64,000 nt of DNA, from assembly GCF_003334785.1 (NCBI RefSeq), contig NZ_QOWV01000001.1; one strand, 5' to 3'. Shown here piece by piece: positions 1,311 through 42,158 of the stretch (position 1 is its first letter; every line of letters begins with the position of its first letter). Below the pieces are notes generated by a model, which worked only from the letters and a program-made list of their open reading frames with translations, was not told the DNA's origin and did not search any database. Origin of the DNA: Escherichia coli. GTDB taxonomy: Bacteria; Pseudomonadota; Gammaproteobacteria; Enterobacterales; Enterobacteriaceae. A program made the translations under genes and the position numbers.

Positions 1311-3908
1311 ATGGGTAAAGCTCTTGTCATCGTTGAGTCCCCGGCAAAAGCCAAAACGATCAACAAGTATCTGGGTAGTGACTACGTGGTGAAATCCAGC
1401 GTCGGTCACATCCGCGATTTGCCGACCAGTGGCTCAGCTGCCAAAAAGAGTGCCGACTCTACCTCCACCAAGACGGCTAAAAAGCCTAAAAAGGATGAAC
1501 GTGGCGCTCTCGTCAACCGTATGGGGGTTGACCCGTGGCACAATTGGGAGGCGCACTATGAAGTGTTGCCTGGTAAAGAGAAGGTCGTCTCTGAACTGAA
1601 ACAACTGGCTGAAAAAGCCGACCACATCTATCTCGCAACCGACCTTGACCGCGAAGGGGAAGCCATTGCATGGCACCTGCGGGAAGTGATTGGGGGTGAT
1701 GATGCGCGCTATAGCCGAGTGGTGTTTAACGAAATTACTAAAAACGCGATCCGCCAGGCATTTAACAAACCGGGTGAGCTGAATATTGATCGTGTTAATG
1801 CCCAGCAGGCGCGTCGCTTTATGGACCGCGTGGTGGGGTATATGGTTTCGCCGCTGCTATGGAAAAAGATCGCTCGTGGTCTGTCTGCCGGTCGTGTGCA
1901 GTCGGTGGCGGTTCGCCTGGTGGTCGAGCGTGAGCGTGAAATTAAAGCGTTCGTGCCGGAAGAGTTCTGGGAAGTCGATGCCAGCACGACCACGCCATCT
2001 GGTGAAGCGTTGGCGTTACAGGTGACTCATCAGAACGACAAACCGTTCCGTCCGGTCAACAAAGAACAAACTCAGGCTGCGGTAAGTCTGCTGGAAAAAG
2101 CGCGCTACAGCGTGCTGGAACGTGAAGACAAACCGACAACCAGTAAACCTGGCGCTCCTTTTATTACCTCTACGCTGCAACAAGCTGCCAGCACCCGTCT
2201 TGGATTTGGCGTGAAAAAAACCATGATGATGGCGCAGCGTTTGTATGAAGCAGGCTATATCACTTACATGCGTACCGACTCCACTAACCTGAGTCAGGAC
2301 GCGGTAAATATGGTTCGCGGTTATATCAGCGATAATTTTGGTAAGAAATATCTGCCGGAAAGTCCGAATCAGTACGCCAGCAAAGAAAACTCACAGGAAG
2401 CGCACGAAGCGATTCGTCCTTCTGACGTCAATGTGATGGCGGAATCGCTGAAGGATATGGAAGCAGATGCGCAGAAACTGTACCAGTTAATCTGGCGTCA
2501 GTTCGTTGCCTGCCAGATGACCCCAGCGAAATATGACTCCACGACGCTGACCGTTGGTGCGGGCGATTTCCGCCTGAAAGCACGCGGTCGTATTTTGCGT
2601 TTTGATGGCTGGACAAAAGTGATGCCTGCGTTGCGTAAAGGCGATGAAGATCGCATCTTACCAGCAGTTAATAAAGGCGATGCTCTGACGCTCGTTGAAC
2701 TTACACCAGCCCAGCACTTTACCAAGCCGCCAGCCCGTTTCAGTGAAGCATCGCTGGTTAAAGAGCTGGAAAAACGCGGTATCGGTCGTCCGTCTACCTA
2801 TGCGTCGATCATTTCGACCATTCAGGATCGTGGCTACGTGCGAGTAGAAAATCGTCGTTTCTATGCGGAAAAAATGGGCGAAATCGTCACCGATCGCCTT
2901 GAAGAAAATTTCCGCGAGTTAATGAACTACGACTTTACCGCGCAGATGGAAAACAGCCTCGACCAGGTGGCAAATCACGAAGCAGAGTGGAAAGCTGTAC
3001 TGGATCACTTCTTCTCGGATTTCACCCAGCAGTTAGATAAAGCTGAAAAAGATCCGGAAGAGGGTGGTATGCGCCCGAACCAGATGGTTCTGACCAGCAT
3101 TGACTGCCCGACTTGTGGTCGCAAAATGGGGATTCGCACAGCGAGCACCGGGGTATTCCTTGGCTGTTCTGGCTATGCGCTGCCGCCGAAAGAGCGTTGC
3201 AAAACCACCATTAACCTGGTGCCGGAAAACGAAGTGCTGAACGTGCTGGAAGGCGAAGATGCTGAAACCAACGCGCTGCGCGCAAAACGTCGTTGCCCGA
3301 AATGCGGCACGGCGATGGACAGCTATCTCATCGATCCGAAACGTAAGTTGCATGTCTGTGGTAATAACCCAACCTGCGACGGTTACGAGATCGAAGAGGG
3401 CGAATTCCGCATTAAAGGTTATGACGGCCCGATCGTTGAGTGTGAAAAATGTGGCTCTGAAATGCACCTGAAAATGGGGCGTTTCGGTAAATACATGGCC
3501 TGCACCAACGAAGAGTGTAAAAACACACGTAAGATTTTACGTAACGGCGAAGTGGCACCACCGAAAGAAGATCCGGTGCCATTACCTGAGCTGCCGTGCG
3601 AAAAATCAGATGCTTATTTCGTGCTGCGTGACGGTGCTGCCGGTGTGTTCCTGGCTGCCAACACTTTCCCGAAATCGCGTGAAACGCGTGCGCCACTGGT
3701 GGAAGAGCTTTATCGCTTCCGCGACCGTCTGCCGGAAAAACTGCGTTATCTGGCCGATGCGCCACAGCAGGATCCGGAAGGTAATAAGACCATGGTTCGC
3801 TTTAGCCGTAAAACCAAACAGCAATATGTCTCTTCGGAAAAAGACGGAAAGGCGACTGGCTGGTCAGCATTTTATGTTGATGGCAAATGGGTTGAAGGAA
3901 AAAAATAA
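1311..3908 (+). CDS. topA: DNA topoisomerase I
   Basis: 865-aa protein starting [22 protein letters not shown] (track ORF from 1269 is a 14-codon upstream extension); TOPRIM domain and C-terminal tetracysteine zinc ribbons (CPTCGRK..., CPKCGTAM..., CEKCGSEM...). Confidence 0.97.
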
Positions 3909-3937
3909 CCTTTAATTCTGTCAGGTTTTTATAAACA

Positions 3938-3966
3938 AAGGGTCGCGAAAGCGGCCCTTTTTTATT
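3938..3966 (+). terminator. Intrinsic terminator downstream of topA
   Basis: aagggtcgc-gaaa-gcggccctt hairpin (1 mismatch) followed by tttttt. Confidence 0.7.
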
Positions 3967-4093
3967 GCATATTATTTTTTCTTCACACCTATACACTAAG
4001 GCTATAAATGATATAGTGGTTATAGTTAGCACCTTTTTTATTATTAAATCGTATTAGTCACCCGCCAGGTGTGACGAAAAAACGATGTTCTGA

Positions 4094-5092
<999 letters not shown>

Positions 5093-5422
5093 TTTCTTGC
5101 GTTATTTTCGGCACCTTTTATGTAGCGAAGGTGCCGGAATATATTCTCTTTTGTTACTTATTTCTATACCGTGCACAATATTTTTATCCCTCATATTTAT
5201 AGGGTAAATTACCTGTAAAGTAGTGTCTAATTACCCGCCTCGCAAACTCCAGTTTTCAAATATCTATTTCAGGTCAAAAGATTGAATTATTCACTGGAGA
5301 CGATTCGTAAATTCGCTGGATTTTTGACTAAAGTTTCTTTAGGATTTGTCTCATCGTATGATTAATTACACCAATCGTTCAACGTCTTGCTGATAAGTGA
5401 TGGCGATTATATGAGGTTAGCA

Positions 5423-25733: not shown

Positions 25734-27373
25734 GGTTTTTTCACCTCATCCTGTTTCTCGCGATACACCCCAGCAAAGGAGGCGTTACCAAACGGGCTAA
25801 GTACCAGACCTTTGATATCGTACCGATAGGCCTGCAAACGCAATGACGACGCCAGCGGCAAAATGGGCAATTCCTGCGCCAGAATACTCTGCGCTTCGTC
25901 ATAGGCTTCAATACGCGCCGCCAGCTGCTGCGAAGAGAGCGCCTTACGCAATACGCTGTCGAATTTCGGATCGCACCAGTGGGCGAGGTTGGTCTGCGAA
26001 TGAATTGCCGCGCAGCTCAGTAACGGACGGAAGAAACTGTCCGGGTCGTTACTGTCCGTCGCCCAACCGGATAACGTCAGATCATGGCTCATATCCATCA
26101 ACCGCGCCTCCTGAAAGCGACCTTCTACCGGCACAATCACCACTTTTACGCCAACCTGCGCCATATCCGCCTGAATCAGTTCGGCAGTTTTCAGTGGACT
26201 GGGGTTCCACGCCTGCGAACGTGTGGGCACCCACAGTTTCAGCGTTAAATTTTCCAGCCCCAACGACTTCAACTGTTCGCGCGATTTCGCCGGATTGTAT
26301 TCAGTAATTTTAGCCTCGTTGTCATAGGCCCACGAGGCGCGCGGTAAAATAGAGGCCGCCGTTTCAGCCGTACCATAATAGATGGATTGCATCAGGCGCT
26401 GGTTATTAATCGCCAGTGCCAGCGCATGGCGGACAGCGGGATTATTTAGCGGCGGTTTGGCGGTGTTAAATGCCAGATAGGCGACGTTCATCCCAGGACG
26501 CAGCGTTAAACGCAAGCGCGGGTCGTCACGCAAAATGGATAGCTGGCTGGCAGCAGGCCAGGCCAGAACGTCGCATTCCCCGGTCAGGAGTTTCGACAGA
26601 CGTCCGGTGCCGCCGGAGCCTAAATCCACCACTACCTGCGGCATTAACGGTTTACCGCGCCAGAAGTCATCATGACGTTGTAGGCGAATAAATTGCCCGG
26701 CGCGGTATTCCGACAACTGATACGGACCGGTGCCGACCGGTTGACGGTCGAGTTGCTCCTGGCGATCTTCTTTCTCTAACTTCCGGGCATATTCTGCCGA
26801 CATGACCGAAGCATAATGGGTTGCGAGGTGCCACAAAAAAGAAGCATCCGGCTGGGCGAGTCGGAACTCAACGGTATGATTATCCAGTTTGCGGACGCTT
26901 TTCACGTTATCGGCAAATTGCAGGCTGTCGAAGTAGGGGAAGTTGCTGCCGTTGACGTTATGCCACGGGTTGTTGCGGTCAAAAATTCGCTGGAAGGTAA
27001 ACACCACATCGTCGGCATTCATTTTACGAGTGGGAGTAAACCAGTCGGTTTTTTGAAACGGAACATCGCGACGCAGGTGGAAGCGATAGGTCGCGCCGTT
27101 GTCGAGTACTTCCCAGCTTTCGGCAAGTTCCGGCATCAGGCGATAGGTATAGGGATCGACATCCAGCAGTCGATCATAAAACTGGGCGGCAAGGGTATCG
27201 ACAATTAACCCACTGCTCGCTTTGGATGGGTTAAAGGTGTTGACTTGCCCGCTGACGCAATAGACAAAACCGCTGTCGCGGATATCAGCATGCGGGGGAG
27301 ATTCAGGCGCGGCGATTGCCTGACCACTCACAAGTCCAGCAATCACCAAAAGAGACGATAATACCTGGCGCAT
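25730..27373 (-). CDS. sapA: Periplasmic substrate-binding protein SapA (family 5 SBP)
   Basis: 547-aa ORF with signal peptide [21 protein letters not shown]; ATGA overlap with sapB. Confidence 0.95.
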
Positions 27374-29752: not shown

Positions 29753-31171
29753 TTACGCGTTTTTCAACATCCACTCAATTTCTGTTTCTGTGATGAGGCG
29801 CTCAAACTGCAACAGCTCATCATTTTTACAGGCGTGATAGACATGGCAGAAGCGTTCGCCTAAATAGCGGCGCAGGTGATCATTCTCGATAAACTCACCC
29901 AGGGCATCGCTCTGGCGAATCGGAAAGGGTAAGCCTTCCTGTTCCAGCCCGTTGCCTTCGACTTCTTCCTGCAACGGCAGCTCGTTATCAAGGCCATGCA
30001 AAATACCGGCAAAAATCGCTGCCATCACCAGATATGGGTTGGCATCGGCACCCGCCACGCGATATTCCACGCGGTGATTATGACGGTCGCCGCACGGAAT
30101 ACGCAGGGCGACGGTGCGGTTGTTATGGCCCCACGACGCCTGCGTCGGCACATACATTCCCGGCTGGAAGCGGCGATACGAGTTCACGTTTGGTGCCAGC
30201 AACGCCATCGACGACGGCATCAGGTCAATCATCCCGGCGAGCATCTTTTTCAGCAGCGGCGAATCTTCGCCTTCCGCGTCAGAAAGCACGTTCTCGCCAC
30301 GATTATTTTGCATACTGATATGGATATGCATTCCGCTGCCCGCGTGCTCTTCATACGGCTTCGCCATAAAAGTGGCGTGCATCTTATGCTTTTCTGCCAT
30401 CAGACGCACCAGGCGTTTTAGTGCCAGCGCATCATCGCAGGCTTCCAGCACGTTATCAGTATGGTAAAGGTTGATTTCAAACTGACCCGGCGAGGCCTCA
30501 GCGACCGCGCCATCTGCCGGAATCAGCTGTAACTGCGCCAGTTCATCAATATCATTGAGCACGTCGGCGAAGTGGTTGAGGTTATCAACGGAGTAAACCT
30601 GGCTTTGTGTATTGCGGTCATCGGTGCCAGGCGCGCAGGGCGGTTGCAGATACCCTTCAGCGTCGCGCTGGCGATCCAGTAAATAGAACTCCAGCTCTAC
30701 CGCTACGACCGGGAACAATCCGCGCTGGCGCAGCTGCTGCCACAGGCGGTTAAGAACGTTCCGCGGCTCAACGTCAAAGGGAGCGCCATCTTCATCGACC
30801 ATGGTCAGGAGCATCTGACCGATAAACTCTGGATCGGCGGCAGAAGGAGTTAAGGAACCGAGAACAGGAACACAGGTACGATCCGGCTCGCCCATTTCCT
30901 GACCCAGACCTGCTTCTTCTACTACGTTGCCCAGAATATCCATTGCAAATACCGAGGCCGGGAAATAACACCCTTTCTCGAGCTTCTTCAGGCTTGAAAC
31001 AGGAATACGCTTTCCACGGAAGCAACCATTTAAATCGGTAAGTAAAACATCAACATATTGCGTATTCGGGTAGCGCTCCAGGTAGCGTTTCACTTCCTGC
31101 GTAAAGGCGCTACCCCGCCTCTCTTCTGACTGCTGAACAAAGTTCTCTACTTCAACGATATTGGTTTCCAT
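29753..31171 (-). CDS. puuA: Gamma-glutamylputrescine synthetase
   Basis: 472-aa glutamine-synthetase-family protein starting METNIVEVENFVQQSEERRG (track ORF extended 26 codons). Confidence 0.95.
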   Translation of the reverse strand: METNIVEVENFVQQSEERRGSAFTQEVKRYLERYPNTQYVDVLLTDLNGCFRGKRIPVSSLKKLEKGCYFPASVFAMDILGNVVEEAGLGQEMGEPDRTCVPVLGSLTPSAADPEFIGQMLLTMVDEDGAPFDVEPRNVLNRLWQQLRQRGLFPVVAVELEFYLLDRQRDAEGYLQPPCAPGTDDRNTQSQVYSVDNLNHFADVLNDIDELAQLQLIPADGAVAEASPGQFEINLYHTDNVLEACDDALALKRLVRLMAEKHKMHATFMAKPYEEHAGSGMHIHISMQNNRGENVLSDAEGEDSPLLKKMLAGMIDLMPSSMALLAPNVNSYRRFQPGMYVPTQASWGHNNRTVALRIPCGDRHNHRVEYRVAGADANPYLVMAAIFAGILHGLDNELPLQEEVEGNGLEQEGLPFPIRQSDALGEFIENDHLRRYLGERFCHVYHACKNDELLQFERLITETEIEWMLKNA

Positions 31172-31214
31172 GATTCTTCGCCTTTGGTTTGTTTTCCGCT
31201 CGTTATCAAAGCGT

Positions 31215-31326
31215 AAAATATAATGACCACCATTCGAATCTGTATGCAAACTAAATGTTTGTCAAATGTTAAATTGAGTTTGCAAAAATGAAAACCCACT
31301 GCTAGATTGAAAAAATATTGAACATA
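31215..31326. promoter_or_regulatory. puuA-puuD divergent control region with two candidate PuuR boxes
   Basis: aaaatataatgacca (31215-31229) and aaaatattgaacata (31312-31326) are near-repeats of one another; the PuuR-box interpretation is from memory of the published motif. Confidence 0.4.
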
Positions 31327-31382
31327 AAGGTCATTTAAAGCGCAGTAATGGCGATAATTTAGTCCACTTTGTGAGATTGAGC

Positions 31383-32147
31383 ATGGAAAATATAATGAAC
31401 AATCCGGTTATCGGTGTCGTAATGTGCAGGAACAGGCTTAAGGGTCATGCGACCCAGACTCTGCAAGAAAAGTACCTGAATGCCATCATCCATGCAGGCG
31501 GCTTGCCTATTGCGCTACCACATGCGCTGGCGGAACCGTCATTACTTGAACAACTTTTGCCGAAACTCGATGGCATTTATCTTCCTGGTAGTCCCAGCAA
31601 TGTGCAGCCGCACCTATATGGTGAAAACGGCGATGAGCCTGACGCCGATCCCGGGCGTGATCTTCTGAGCATGGCGATAATTAATGCCGCACTCGAAAGG
31701 CGCATCCCCATTTTCGCCATCTGCCGGGGTTTACAAGAACTGGTGGTGGCAACCGGTGGTTCGTTGCATCGCAAGCTGTGCGAACAGCCTGAATTGCTGG
31801 AACATCGGGAAGATCCCGAACTGCCGGTGGAACAGCAATATGCACCGTCGCATGAAGTTCAGGTTGAAGAGGGGGGATTACTGTCTGCGTTGTTACCTGA
31901 ATGTAGCAACTTTTGGGTAAACTCTCTACATGGACAAGGGGCGAAGGTCGTTAGCCCACGGTTGCGTGTTGAAGCTCGCTCGCCGGATGGCTTAGTTGAG
32001 GCGGTTAGCGTCATCAATCATCCTTTTGCGCTGGGCGTACAGTGGCACCCGGAATGGAACAGTAGCGAGTACGCGCTTTCGCGTATATTGTTCGAGGGCT
32101 TTATCACCGCTTGTCAGCACCATATCGCTGAAAAACAGCGACTCTGA
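31383..32147 (+). CDS. puuD: Gamma-glutamyl-GABA hydrolase (class I glutamine amidotransferase-like)
   Basis: 254-aa protein starting MENIMNNPVIGVVMCRNRLKGH; catalytic Cys in AICRGLQE. Confidence 0.93.
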   Translation: MENIMNNPVIGVVMCRNRLKGHATQTLQEKYLNAIIHAGGLPIALPHALAEPSLLEQLLPKLDGIYLPGSPSNVQPHLYGENGDEPDADPGRDLLSMAIINAALERRIPIFAICRGLQELVVATGGSLHRKLCEQPELLEHREDPELPVEQQYAPSHEVQVEEGGLLSALLPECSNFWVNSLHGQGAKVVSPRLRVEARSPDGLVEAVSVINHPFALGVQWHPEWNSSEYALSRILFEGFITACQHHIAEKQRL

Positions 32148-32173: not shown

Positions 32174-32731
32174 ATGAGTGATGAGGGACTGGCGCCAGGA
32201 AAACGCTTGTCGGAAATCCGCCAGCAGCAGGGGCTTTCACAACGTCGTGCCGCCGAACTCTCCGGGCTGACTCACAGTGCTATCAGTACGATAGAACAAG
32301 ATAAAGTCAGCCCTGCCATCAGTACGCTGCAAAAGCTGCTGAAGGTGTATGGTCTGTCACTCTCGGAATTCTTTTCCGAGCCGGAAAAACCTGATGAGCC
32401 GCAGGTCGTCATTAATCAGGACGACTTAATTGAGATGGGTAGTCAGGGTGTGTCAATGAAGCTGGTTCATAACGGTAACCCGAATCGCACGCTGGCGATG
32501 ATCTTTGAAACGTACCAGCCGGGCACAACCACTGGGGAAAGAATTAAGCATCAGGGTGAGGAAATAGGCACTGTACTGGAAGGTGAAATTGTTCTGACGA
32601 TTAATGGTCAGGATTACCACCTCGTCGCGGGGCAAAGTTATGCCATTAATACCGGCATCCCGCACAGTTTCAGTAATACGTCGGCAGGTATTTGCCGAAT
32701 TATCAGCGCCCATACGCCCACCACGTTTTAA
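32174..32731 (+). CDS. puuR: Repressor PuuR (XRE HTH plus cupin)
   Basis: 185-aa ORF MSDEGLAPGKRLSEIRQQQGLSQRRAAELSGLTHSAISTIEQDK... Confidence 0.95.
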   Translation: MSDEGLAPGKRLSEIRQQQGLSQRRAAELSGLTHSAISTIEQDKVSPAISTLQKLLKVYGLSLSEFFSEPEKPDEPQVVINQDDLIEMGSQGVSMKLVHNGNPNRTLAMIFETYQPGTTTGERIKHQGEEIGTVLEGEIVLTINGQDYHLVAGQSYAINTGIPHSFSNTSAGICRIISAHTPTTF

Positions 32732-32775
32732 TCTTTTTGTTCTGTAAGCCGGGTAAGCGCAATGCGCCCGGCAAT

Positions 32776-32905
32776 CTATACACAAAATCATTCAAGTTGC
32801 ATCAAGGCGGCAAGTGAGCGAATCCCGATGAGCTTACTCAGGTAAGTGATTCGGGGGAGCGAACGCAGCCAAGGCAGAGGCGGCTTGAAGGATGAAGTGT
32901 ATATA
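32776..32905. repeat. ERIC/IRU enterobacterial repetitive intergenic consensus element
   Basis: Imperfect ~127-bp palindrome with the core gtgagcgaatcccgatgagcttac...gtaagtgattcgggggagcgaacgcag, resembling the ERIC1R/ERIC2 primer regions; between puuR and puuC. Confidence 0.75.
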
Positions 32906-33005
32906 AAGAATGTCGCCAGAAATAAACGGGCATACGGCCCGGGGATCTCTGCGCCCTGACGTTCACAAACTGCATATATCTGATAGACGTGAAACAGGAG
33001 TCATA

Positions 33006-40478: not shown

Positions 40479-42158
40479 ATGAAACAGAAAATTACGGATT
40501 ACCTGGACGAAATCTACGGTGGAACATTTACCGCAACTCATTTACAGAAACTTGTAACGCGTCTTGAGAGTGCGAAACGATTAATTACACAGCGACGTAA
40601 AAAACACTGGGATGAAAGTGATGTCGTGTTAATTACCTATGCCGATCAATTTCACAGCAATGATTTAAAACCATTACCCACATTTAATCAGTTTTACCAT
40701 CAATGGCTGCAAAGCATTTTTTCACATGTTCATTTGTTGCCGTTTTATCCATGGTCATCTGATGATGGCTTTTCGGTAATTGATTATCATCAGGTCGCCA
40801 GTGAAGCGGGGGAGTGGCAGGATATTCAGCAACTCGGTGAATGCAGTCATTTAATGTTTGATTTTGTCTGCAACCATATGTCGGCAAAAAGTGAATGGTT
40901 TAAAAACTATTTACAACAGCATCCAGGTTTTGAAGATTTTTTTATTGCCGTTGACCCGCAAACCGATCTCAGCGCCGTCACTCGCCCGCGTGCGTTACCG
41001 TTATTAACGCCATTCCAGATGCGCGATCATTCAACGCGCCATTTATGGACCACCTTTAGTGACGATCAAATTGACCTGAATTACCGTAGCCCTGAAGTGT
41101 TGCTGGCGATGGTGGATGTTTTACTCTGTTACCTTGCGAAAGGTGCTGAGTATGTCCGCCTGGATGCCGTTGGCTTTATGTGGAAAGAGCCGGGAACAAG
41201 CTGCATCCATCTGGAAAAAACACATCTGATTATCAAACTGTTACGGTCGATTATTGATAACGTTGCGCCAGGTACAGTGATCATTACCGAGACCAATGTT
41301 CCGCATAAAGACAACATTGCTTACTTTGGCGCAGGCGATGACGAAGCACATATGGTGTACCAGTTCTCGCTGCCGCCACTGGTGCTGCATGCGGTGCAAA
41401 AACAGAACGTTGAGGCGCTTTGTGCGTGGGCGCAAAACCTGACACTACCTTCCAGCAACACCACCTGGTTTAACTTCCTCGCCTCTCACGATGGCATCGG
41501 GCTAAACCCGCTACGGGGCTTGTTGCCTGAAAGCGAAATATTAGAGCTGGTCGAGGCGTTACAGCAGGAAGGTGCATTAGTAAACTGGAAAAATAATCCC
41601 GACGGTACACGCAGTCCGTATGAAATAAATGTGACCTATATGGATGCGTTAAGCCGCCGTGAGAGTAGCGATGAAGAACGTTGCGCCAGGTTTATCCTTG
41701 CCCATGCGATTTTGTTAAGTTTCCCCGGTGTGCCAGCGATATATATTCAAAGTATTCTTGGCTCGCGTAATGATTACGCAGGTGTCGAAAAAATCGGATA
41801 TAACCGTGCGATTAACCGTAAAAAATATCACAGTAAAGAGATAACCCGAGAACTGAACGATGAAGCTACATTAAGGCATGCGGTATATCATGAGTTGTCG
41901 CGTTTAATTACACTTCGTCGCAGCCATAACGAGTTTCATCCGGATAATAATTTTACCATTGATACGATTAATTCATCCGTAATGCGTATTCAAAGAAGTA
42001 ACGCTGATGGTAATTGTCTGACTGGATTGTTTAATGTCAGTAAAAATATTCAGCATGTAAATATTACTAATCTGCATGGTCGGGATCTGATTAGTGAAGT
42101 TGATATATTGGGTAATGAAATAACGCTGCGCCCCTGGCAGGTTATGTGGATTAAATAA
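40479..42158 (+). CDS. ycjM: GH13 sucrose-phosphorylase-like enzyme (glucosylglycerate phosphorylase)
   Basis: 559-aa protein starting MKQKITDYLDEIYGGTFTATHLQKL (track ORF extended 9 codons). Confidence 0.9.
   Translation: MKQKITDYLDEIYGGTFTATHLQKLVTRLESAKRLITQRRKKHWDESDVVLITYADQFHSNDLKPLPTFNQFYHQWLQSIFSHVHLLPFYPWSSDDGFSVIDYHQVASEAGEWQDIQQLGECSHLMFDFVCNHMSAKSEWFKNYLQQHPGFEDFFIAVDPQTDLSAVTRPRALPLLTPFQMRDHSTRHLWTTFSDDQIDLNYRSPEVLLAMVDVLLCYLAKGAEYVRLDAVGFMWKEPGTSCIHLEKTHLIIKLLRSIIDNVAPGTVIITETNVPHKDNIAYFGAGDDEAHMVYQFSLPPLVLHAVQKQNVEALCAWAQNLTLPSSNTTWFNFLASHDGIGLNPLRGLLPESEILELVEALQQEGALVNWKNNPDGTRSPYEINVTYMDALSRRESSDEERCARFILAHAILLSFPGVPAIYIQSILGSRNDYAGVEKIGYNRAINRKKYHSKEITRELNDEATLRHAVYHELSRLITLRRSHNEFHPDNNFTIDTINSSVMRIQRSNADGNCLTGLFNVSKNIQHVNITNLHGRDLISEVDILGNEITLRPWQVMWIK

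Follow-up and report, generated by a model that had tools for sequence, protein, structure and literature searches.

The analyzed window, i.e., the whole stretch of Escherichia coli DNA considered here (64,000 nucleotides), carries a puu locus, whose part between positions 30900 and 31700 shows 100% DNA identity to many E. coli chromosomes annotated with puuA next to puuD-puuR-puuC-puuB-puuE. Within the 12.8-kb annotated stretch, the genes sapA, ymjA, puuP, ymjE, and puuA are encoded on one strand, and puuD, puuR, puuC, puuB, and puuE on the opposite one. The features that delimit the region under study are as follows:

29753–31171, minus strand: puuA, coding sequence of glutamate-putrescine ligase (100% identity to the RefSeq-annotated puuA)
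31172–31382, no strand assigned: divergent puuA/puuD control region of 211 bp, between the puuA start codon and the puuD ATG
31383–32147, plus strand: puuD, coding sequence of gamma-glutamyl-GABA hydrolase (RefSeq annotation and NCBIfam equivalog)
32174–32731, plus strand: puuR, encoding an XRE-type helix-turn-helix repressor (NCBIfam NF007408 equivalog, in agreement with the RefSeq annotation)

The puuA translation comprises 472 aa (N-terminus METNIVEV), and puuA is the first gene of puuA-ymjE-puuP. PuuD matches its NCBIfam equivalog with 574 bits (cutoff 266), and PuuR matches NF007408 with 385 bits (cutoff 211). The coordinates that the initial annotation gave for the spacer between these divergent genes are exact, since the start codon of puuA, on the minus strand, reaches to 31171 and the ATG of puuD begins at 31383. 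The G+C content of the spacer is 34%, against 51% in the window.

Several observations concern the surroundings and the distribution of this region. Between puuR and the annotated start of puuC there is a 274-bp gap (32732–33005), in which no PuuR-like site with up to 3 mismatches was found; the puuC promoter was reported to be sigma-S dependent. Among 5426 complete E. coli genomes, 1054 gave no megablast match to 30900–31700, i.e., about a fifth of E. coli strains lack the puu control region and perhaps the whole cluster. Six of the megablast matches are located on plasmids. In the wastewater strains SW0716xx, the 801-base query matches as two pieces over 835 bases with 100% identity, which indicates approximately 34 additional bases somewhere in their puuA-puuD region.

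The initial annotation pointed to two near-identical AT-rich 15-mers in the spacer, separated by 97 bp, as expected binding places of the PuuR repressor. Both strings are indeed present at this distance (AAAATATAATGACCA at 31215–31229 and AAAATATTGAACATA at 31312–31326), but they can hardly be called near-identical, since they agree, ungapped, at just 8 of 15 positions. The reason lies in the register, as the second string was quoted 2 nt off: the repeat finder and the consensus scan both placed the second copy at 31310–31324 (AAAAAATATTGAACA), with a spacing of 95 bp and 12/15 identity to the first one. The cross-species conservation also backs this register, because the TG..CA bases are then aligned, whereas in the quoted register of the second motif they are misaligned. 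Furthermore, two sites had been overlooked, i.e., a third copy of the repeat within the start of puuD (31387–31401) and a candidate fourth site at 31349–31366. The third copy, AAAATATAATGAACA, covers puuD codons 2–7 and shows 14/15 and 13/15 identity to the other two, which gives a family (D1) of three direct copies with spacings of 95 and 77 bp.

The window was also scanned with AAAATATAATGAACA, a 15-bp word that we take to be the PuuR consensus of Nemoto et al. (2012). The scan gave 0 mismatches at 31387, 1 at 31215, and 2 at 31310, and no further place in the 64-kb window lies within 2 mismatches of this word. A full-text literature search with this word and with the site sequences returned no relevant paper.

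Of 1000 shuffles that preserved the dinucleotides, 332 contained a 15-mer pair at least as good as the best one of the spacer alone (12/15), so the observation of two motifs is, by itself, not above chance. When the first 38 nt of puuD were included, the best pair (14/15) was reached in 5 of 1000 shuffles and the triple in none of 1000; the family of three repeats is therefore above chance. The significance of the repeats thus depends on the third copy, which lies outside the spacer, and on the cross-species conservation, and the lesson is that two motifs in AT-rich DNA lack significance until such an outside copy and conservation are added.

Extended by three bases on the left side, the copies are designated here S1, S2, and S3, and the candidate fourth site S4:

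31212–31229, plus strand: putative PuuR operator S1, CGTAAAATATAATGACCA (1 mismatch to AAAATATAATGAACA; the first motif of the initial annotation is its 3′ 15 nt, 31215–31229)
31307–31324, plus strand: putative PuuR operator S2, TTGAAAAAATATTGAACA (family D1 member, 2 mismatches to AAAATATAATGAACA)
31384–31401, plus strand: putative PuuR operator S3, TGGAAAATATAATGAACA (from the TG of the puuD ATG through codon 7; its 15-mer 31387–31401 is a perfect AAAATATAATGAACA)
31349–31366, plus strand: candidate PuuR operator S4, TGGCGATAATTTAGTCCA (puuD leader)

Two further elements, for which published data are available, lie in the spacer:

31244–31286, plus strand: ArcA-P site with four direct repeats (identical to ATGCAAACTAAATGTTTGTCAAATGTTAAATTGAGTTTGCAAA, the puuD entry in Table S4 of Park et al. 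2013)
31280–31308, plus strand: puuD promoter, with hexamers read from the sequence (-35 TTGCAA at 31280–31285, 17-nt spacer, -10 TAGATT at 31303–31308)

The most conserved part of the spacer is not formed by the motifs of the initial annotation but by the 43-bp block 31244–31286. It contains TGTTA-like repeats, 11 bp apart, and is identical to the listed puuD site, for which binding in vivo was demonstrated. Park et al. (2013) listed atgtttgtcaaatgttaa as the ArcA box at puuD, with a score of 14 bits, and found a ChIP peak at puuD/puuA; in their study, deletion of arcA increased the expression of puuA 15.3-fold and of puuDR 10.6-fold. An inverted repeat (31245–31256/31273–31284) lies within the block, and its arms carry two divergent -35-like TTTGCA elements. 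Table S6 of Park et al. (2013) places the ArcA site between -70 and -28 with respect to the mapped start of puuDR, from which the puuD start point falls at position 31314.

The -10 hexamer of the puuD promoter is preceded by C, which gives the sigma-S-like CTAGATT, and the block CTGCTAGATTGA hardly varies from genus to genus. This reading of the promoter explains the conserved block and fits the rpoS dependence of puuA and puuD, described previously (PMC3141248). By symmetry with puuD, we infer the puuA promoter to be TTGCAT (31249–31244), an 18-nt spacer, and CATTAT (31225–31220), with S1 lying over its -10 hexamer. With the start point at 31314, GATAAT (31352–31357) was rejected as the -10 element of puuD, because TAGATT (31303–31308) takes this role and 31349–31366 belongs to the leader. 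The consensus promoter scan gave one match, TTGTGA-16-TATAAT at 31369–31396, inside S3 and the coding sequence, and as 1.1 such matches are expected in shuffles, it is no more than chance. A match to the Rfam family CRISPR-DR57 (31356–31403) was sub-threshold (17.5 bits, E = 0.72) and was likewise taken as chance. Inspection of the spacer by eye for FNR, CRP, and sigma-54 consensus matches revealed none that was convincing; the region is under control of ArcA and reportedly also of FNR.

Relative to the puuD start point (derived from Park et al. 2013), S1 occupies positions -102 to -85 (44–58 nt upstream of the puuA start codon), S2 covers -7 to +11, S4 lies at +36 to +53, and S3 spans +71 to +88, within the coding sequence.

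The conservation of the sites was analyzed by scanning one genome per species with PuuR, which gave 80 loci with PuuR identities from 100% down to 76%. The genera represented were Escherichia, Klebsiella, Citrobacter, Enterobacter, Raoultella, Buttiauxella, Cedecea, Pluralibacter, Franconibacter, Hafnia, Erwinia, Pantoea, Serratia, and Rahnella. The divergent arrangement of puuA and puuD is kept, and the spacer measures 210–215 bp in nearly all Enterobacteriaceae examined. In an alignment of 24 genera, S1, S2, and S3 stand out as conserved blocks, each at a constant distance from the ATG of puuD, while the neighbouring spacer sequence is variable; the conserved blocks are S1, the 43-bp central block, CTGCTAGATTGA abutting S2, the S2 core AAATATTGAAC, (A)TAATTTAGTCCA, and S3. 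The same offsets were found in approximately 60 loci from about 20 enterobacterial genera retaining PuuR. A lack of conservation in other puu loci had been named in advance as a ground for abandoning the assignment to PuuR, and it turned out that the positions are kept in every genus examined that has PuuR and divergent puuA/puuD.

At the level of single positions, none of the 30 distinct site sequences deviates at A4, A6, T7, A8, T10, or C14 (in the register of the 31310–31324 copy). In S1, ATATAAT and CA are invariant in 24 genera, the G at 31213 is invariant, and the S2 core is invariant or nearly so. S3 overlaps codons: the third positions of puuD codon 3 (AAT/GAT) and codon 4 (ATA, a rare Ile codon) are invariant in 24 of 24 genera, and codon 6 always contains the bases AC, whichever residue (N, Y, or D) it encodes. 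Unlike codon 4, Ile codon 10 is written only as ATC or ATT, and synonymous sites further downstream in puuD vary freely. The frozen synonymous sites under S3 point to a constraint acting on DNA and not on protein, and the operator overlapping the puuD start appears to fix the codon choice of the first residues (31389–31400, codons 3–6).

A matrix built from the sites, applied with a threshold of at least 13 bits, matched 207 times within the control regions (14.6 kb) and 4 times within the flanking DNA (487 kb), a comparison that is partly circular, as the matrix was derived from 24 of these loci. All recovered loci contain the motif together with puuR, among them the second copies of Serratia that have lost puuD; the sites are also present in Rahnella. 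In the second puu locus of Serratia, all that is left of puuD is a 42-codon remnant ORF (e.g., 3876–4004 in locus L058 of Serratia marcescens MSU97, and likewise in L059, L062, L064–L066, L068, and L070–L075), which keeps the MGNIF start together with the operator in the form of a near-perfect palindrome, TGGGCAATATATTTTCCA. The stop codon of this remnant overlaps the puuR start (ATGA), which suggests translational coupling of the remnant to puuR. The operator of the Serratia second locus descends from S3, and these loci were therefore discarded as a fully independent test of the site, being valid as such only in part; the sites of Serratia and Rahnella share a common descent and are not independent.

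The comparison of the sites from different taxa also bears on the shape of the operator. In several taxa the matrix matches on both strands, 3 nt apart, which suggests an 18-bp inverted repeat. It is clearest in the sequence TGGGCAATATATTTTCCA, found in the Serratia second puu loci, where the site is freed of most of the coding constraint, and in Rahnella. The extended profiles of the individual sites are YGTTAAATATAATGTCCA for S1, TTGAnAAAATATTGAACg for S2, and TGGgcAATATATTtnACA for S3. The pooled 18-bp matrix is self-complementary (r = 0.92, a value reached in 0 of 5000 column permutations), and it stays so after removal of S3, whose TGG is confounded by the ATG start codon (r = 0.83, 0 of 5000). 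S2 alone is not significantly self-complementary (r = 0.30, 851 of 5000 permutations), and its left side, with TTG in place of TGG, fits the palindrome poorly. The single E. coli sites are just half-symmetric. Taken together, this suggests that each site is an imperfect 18-bp inverted repeat approximating TGGnnAATATATTnnCCA, to which S1 and S2 (from 31307) show 3 mismatches in 14 positions and S3 (from 31384) shows 2 in 14. Imperfect inverted repeats of 18 bp are the type of site bound by dimeric helix-turn-helix proteins.

A search of the region with TGGnnAATATATTnnCCA gave S4 as the fourth-best match, with 4 mismatches in 14 positions and perfect outer TGG/CCA. By itself the match is weak, as background sequence contains about 0.3 such matches per kb, but its position and its TGG/CCA ends are kept in most Enterobacteriaceae, where it forms a conserved block with variable flanks. 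A conserved RNA hairpin in the puuD leader was considered as the cause of the conserved block 31353–31366 and rejected, since the consensus fold had only -1.05 kcal/mol and zero compensatory pairs. S4 is retained as a candidate operator, and the published fourth PuuR motif may be a different one. The centre of S2 is separated by 9.05 helical turns from that of S1 and by 4.0 from that of S4, while S3 is out of phase; cooperativity among the in-phase sites S1, S2, and S4 would be speculation.

Elsewhere in the window, the matrix or the palindrome gave weak matches in the cysB-ymiA spacer (TAAAAATATTGTGCA, 14.4 bits, 5172–5186, minus strand), inside sapA of the putrescine-export sap operon (AGGCGAATAAATTGCCCG, 26682–26699), and inside ycjM (CGGATAATAATTTTACCA, 41941–41958). 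These matches, as well as one at 925, were not accepted as further PuuR sites, being weak and at the level expected by chance.

Concerning the protein that recognizes the motifs, they are, very probably, operators of PuuR, the putrescine-responsive repressor encoded in the same locus. The initial annotation had named PuuR as the expected binder, and this assignment is supported by the identity of the gene, by the conservation of the sites, and by the literature on PuuR binding to this spacer. The sites match the 15-bp word, and they are located in the puuA-puuD control region, where S2 lies over the puuD start point and S1 is predicted to overlap the puuA promoter, with the gene of the cognate regulator present in the same locus. 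It should be stressed that PuuR control of the puuA-puuD spacer is already known, from literature since 2012 and from RegulonDB. According to PMC9951944, which cites Nemoto et al. [quoted passage not shown] Footprint protection or gel shifts of this spacer by purified PuuR, relieved by putrescine, are thus known from secondary sources. What the present analysis itself provides are the sites with their register, the statistics, the conservation, and the co-occurrence with puuR.

Three other explanations of the motifs have to be weighed against this assignment. That the repeats are functionless chance similarities in AT-rich intergenic DNA could be argued from the low G+C content of the spacer (34%), from the agreement of the two quoted strings at only 8/15 positions, and from the 332 of 1000 shuffles that matched the best pair of the spacer; but with the third copy included, the shuffles reached the triple in no case and the 14/15 pair in 5, all copies are kept in position over about 20 genera while the neighbouring spacer varies, and the synonymous sites beneath S3 are frozen. 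This makes chance scarcely credible, and, as far as sequence analysis allows, it may be regarded as already refuted.

It is also improbable, though not quite to the same degree, that the motifs belong to the core promoter, as TATAAT-like -10 hexamers and A-tracts, and are conserved for promoter function. S1 and S3 do contain a perfect TATAAT, the scan calls the element TTGTGA-16-TATAAT, and S1 probably overlaps the -10 of puuA on the opposite strand; however, the puuD start at 31314 uses TAGATT (31303–31308), which is not a motif, S3 is situated downstream of that start in the coding sequence, and the single promoter-like match does not exceed the 1.1 expected. In addition, the flanking G..CA, which a -10 hexamer does not need, is conserved as well, and the same 15–18-bp word recurs three to four times. 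Equally unlikely is recognition mainly by another AT-preferring regulator (ArcA, FNR, Nac, IHF, or H-NS) in place of PuuR. ArcA and reportedly FNR act on this region and nucleoid proteins are drawn to AT-rich sequence, but the ArcA site (31244–31286) is situated between the motifs without overlapping any of them, no other place in 64 kb carries the motif with up to 2 mismatches, which sets it apart from the sites of global regulators, and it accompanies puuR in every recovered locus, including the Serratia second copies devoid of puuD.

With PuuR as the binding protein, the arrangement of the sites is compatible with the following mode of control. At low putrescine, PuuR would occupy the sites and block RNA polymerase at both divergent promoters, occluding the puuD start via S2 and probably the puuA -10 via S1, with further sites in the leader and in the first codons. 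Since puuR is co-transcribed with puuD, it would be autoregulated, i.e., PuuR would limit its own synthesis. Putrescine would lower the affinity of PuuR to DNA, which would lead to expression of the puuAP and puuDRCBE operons, and ArcA-P, binding independently to the 43-bp block between the promoters, would turn both off in the absence of oxygen. In this scheme, the binding of PuuR, the response to putrescine, the ArcA site, and the puuD start point come from the literature, and the dimer reading of the palindrome, S4, the position of the puuA promoter, and the cooperativity are what we infer.

A more specific proposal is that the element recognized by PuuR is the 18-bp inverted repeat TGGnnAATATATTnnCCA bound by a dimer, and not the asymmetric 15-mer presently used, and that four such operators stand at fixed spacing across Enterobacteriaceae, with S1, S2, and S4 on one helix face and one operator starting in the puuD start codon. 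We lean towards this proposal, albeit by a narrow measure. In a recent report, the PuuR site was described as non-palindromic and a PuuR dimer as having no supporting evidence (PMC12645834, 2025); the symmetry of the pooled matrix contradicts this statement on the site, and a true dimer reading would contradict the statement on both the site and the known state of PuuR. No solved structure of PuuR or of a close relative exists.

As a discovery, the assignment carries little weight, given that PuuR is already used in putrescine biosensors. The gain is a full map of a dense 230-bp control region, on which the sites of PuuR and ArcA, the promoter, and the start point are placed, and the palindromic reading of the operator, together with the candidate fourth site, appears to be the only mildly new element, i.e., a modest refinement. 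If the 18-bp operator, including the site that overlaps the start codon, were confirmed, it would sharpen motif scans for PuuR and help sensor engineering, and if the dimer reading is true, matrix-based predictions of the PuuR regulon and the design of PuuR-based putrescine biosensors could be improved.

The closest known system is that of the PuuR operators in the puuA-puuD region of E. coli K-12 (Nemoto et al. 2012, J Bacteriol 194:3437; RegulonDB), which represents the same organism, regulator, and locus at 100% DNA identity. Both have four motifs in or at the spacer, repression of both divergent promoters, and putrescine as the inducer; nothing of substance differs, and the present reading adds the three left bases that turn the site into an 18-bp pseudo-palindrome. 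The central block 31244–31286 is the same as the ArcA multi-repeat operator of Park et al. (2013), a separate element between the motifs, which accounts for the highest conservation within the spacer but leaves the motifs unexplained. The XRE-cupin repressors PsdR and PauR of Pseudomonas share with PuuR an N-terminal XRE helix-turn-helix and a C-terminal sensor domain, as well as the repression of adjacent divergent metabolic genes with release by a small molecule. Dimer binding is documented only for the relative PsdR, on the palindrome TTAAG-N5-CTTAA, whereas the PuuR operator differs in sequence and length (18 bp, with an AT-rich centre), and the puu control region is distinguished by several operators, of which one lies within the initial codons of a gene under its control.
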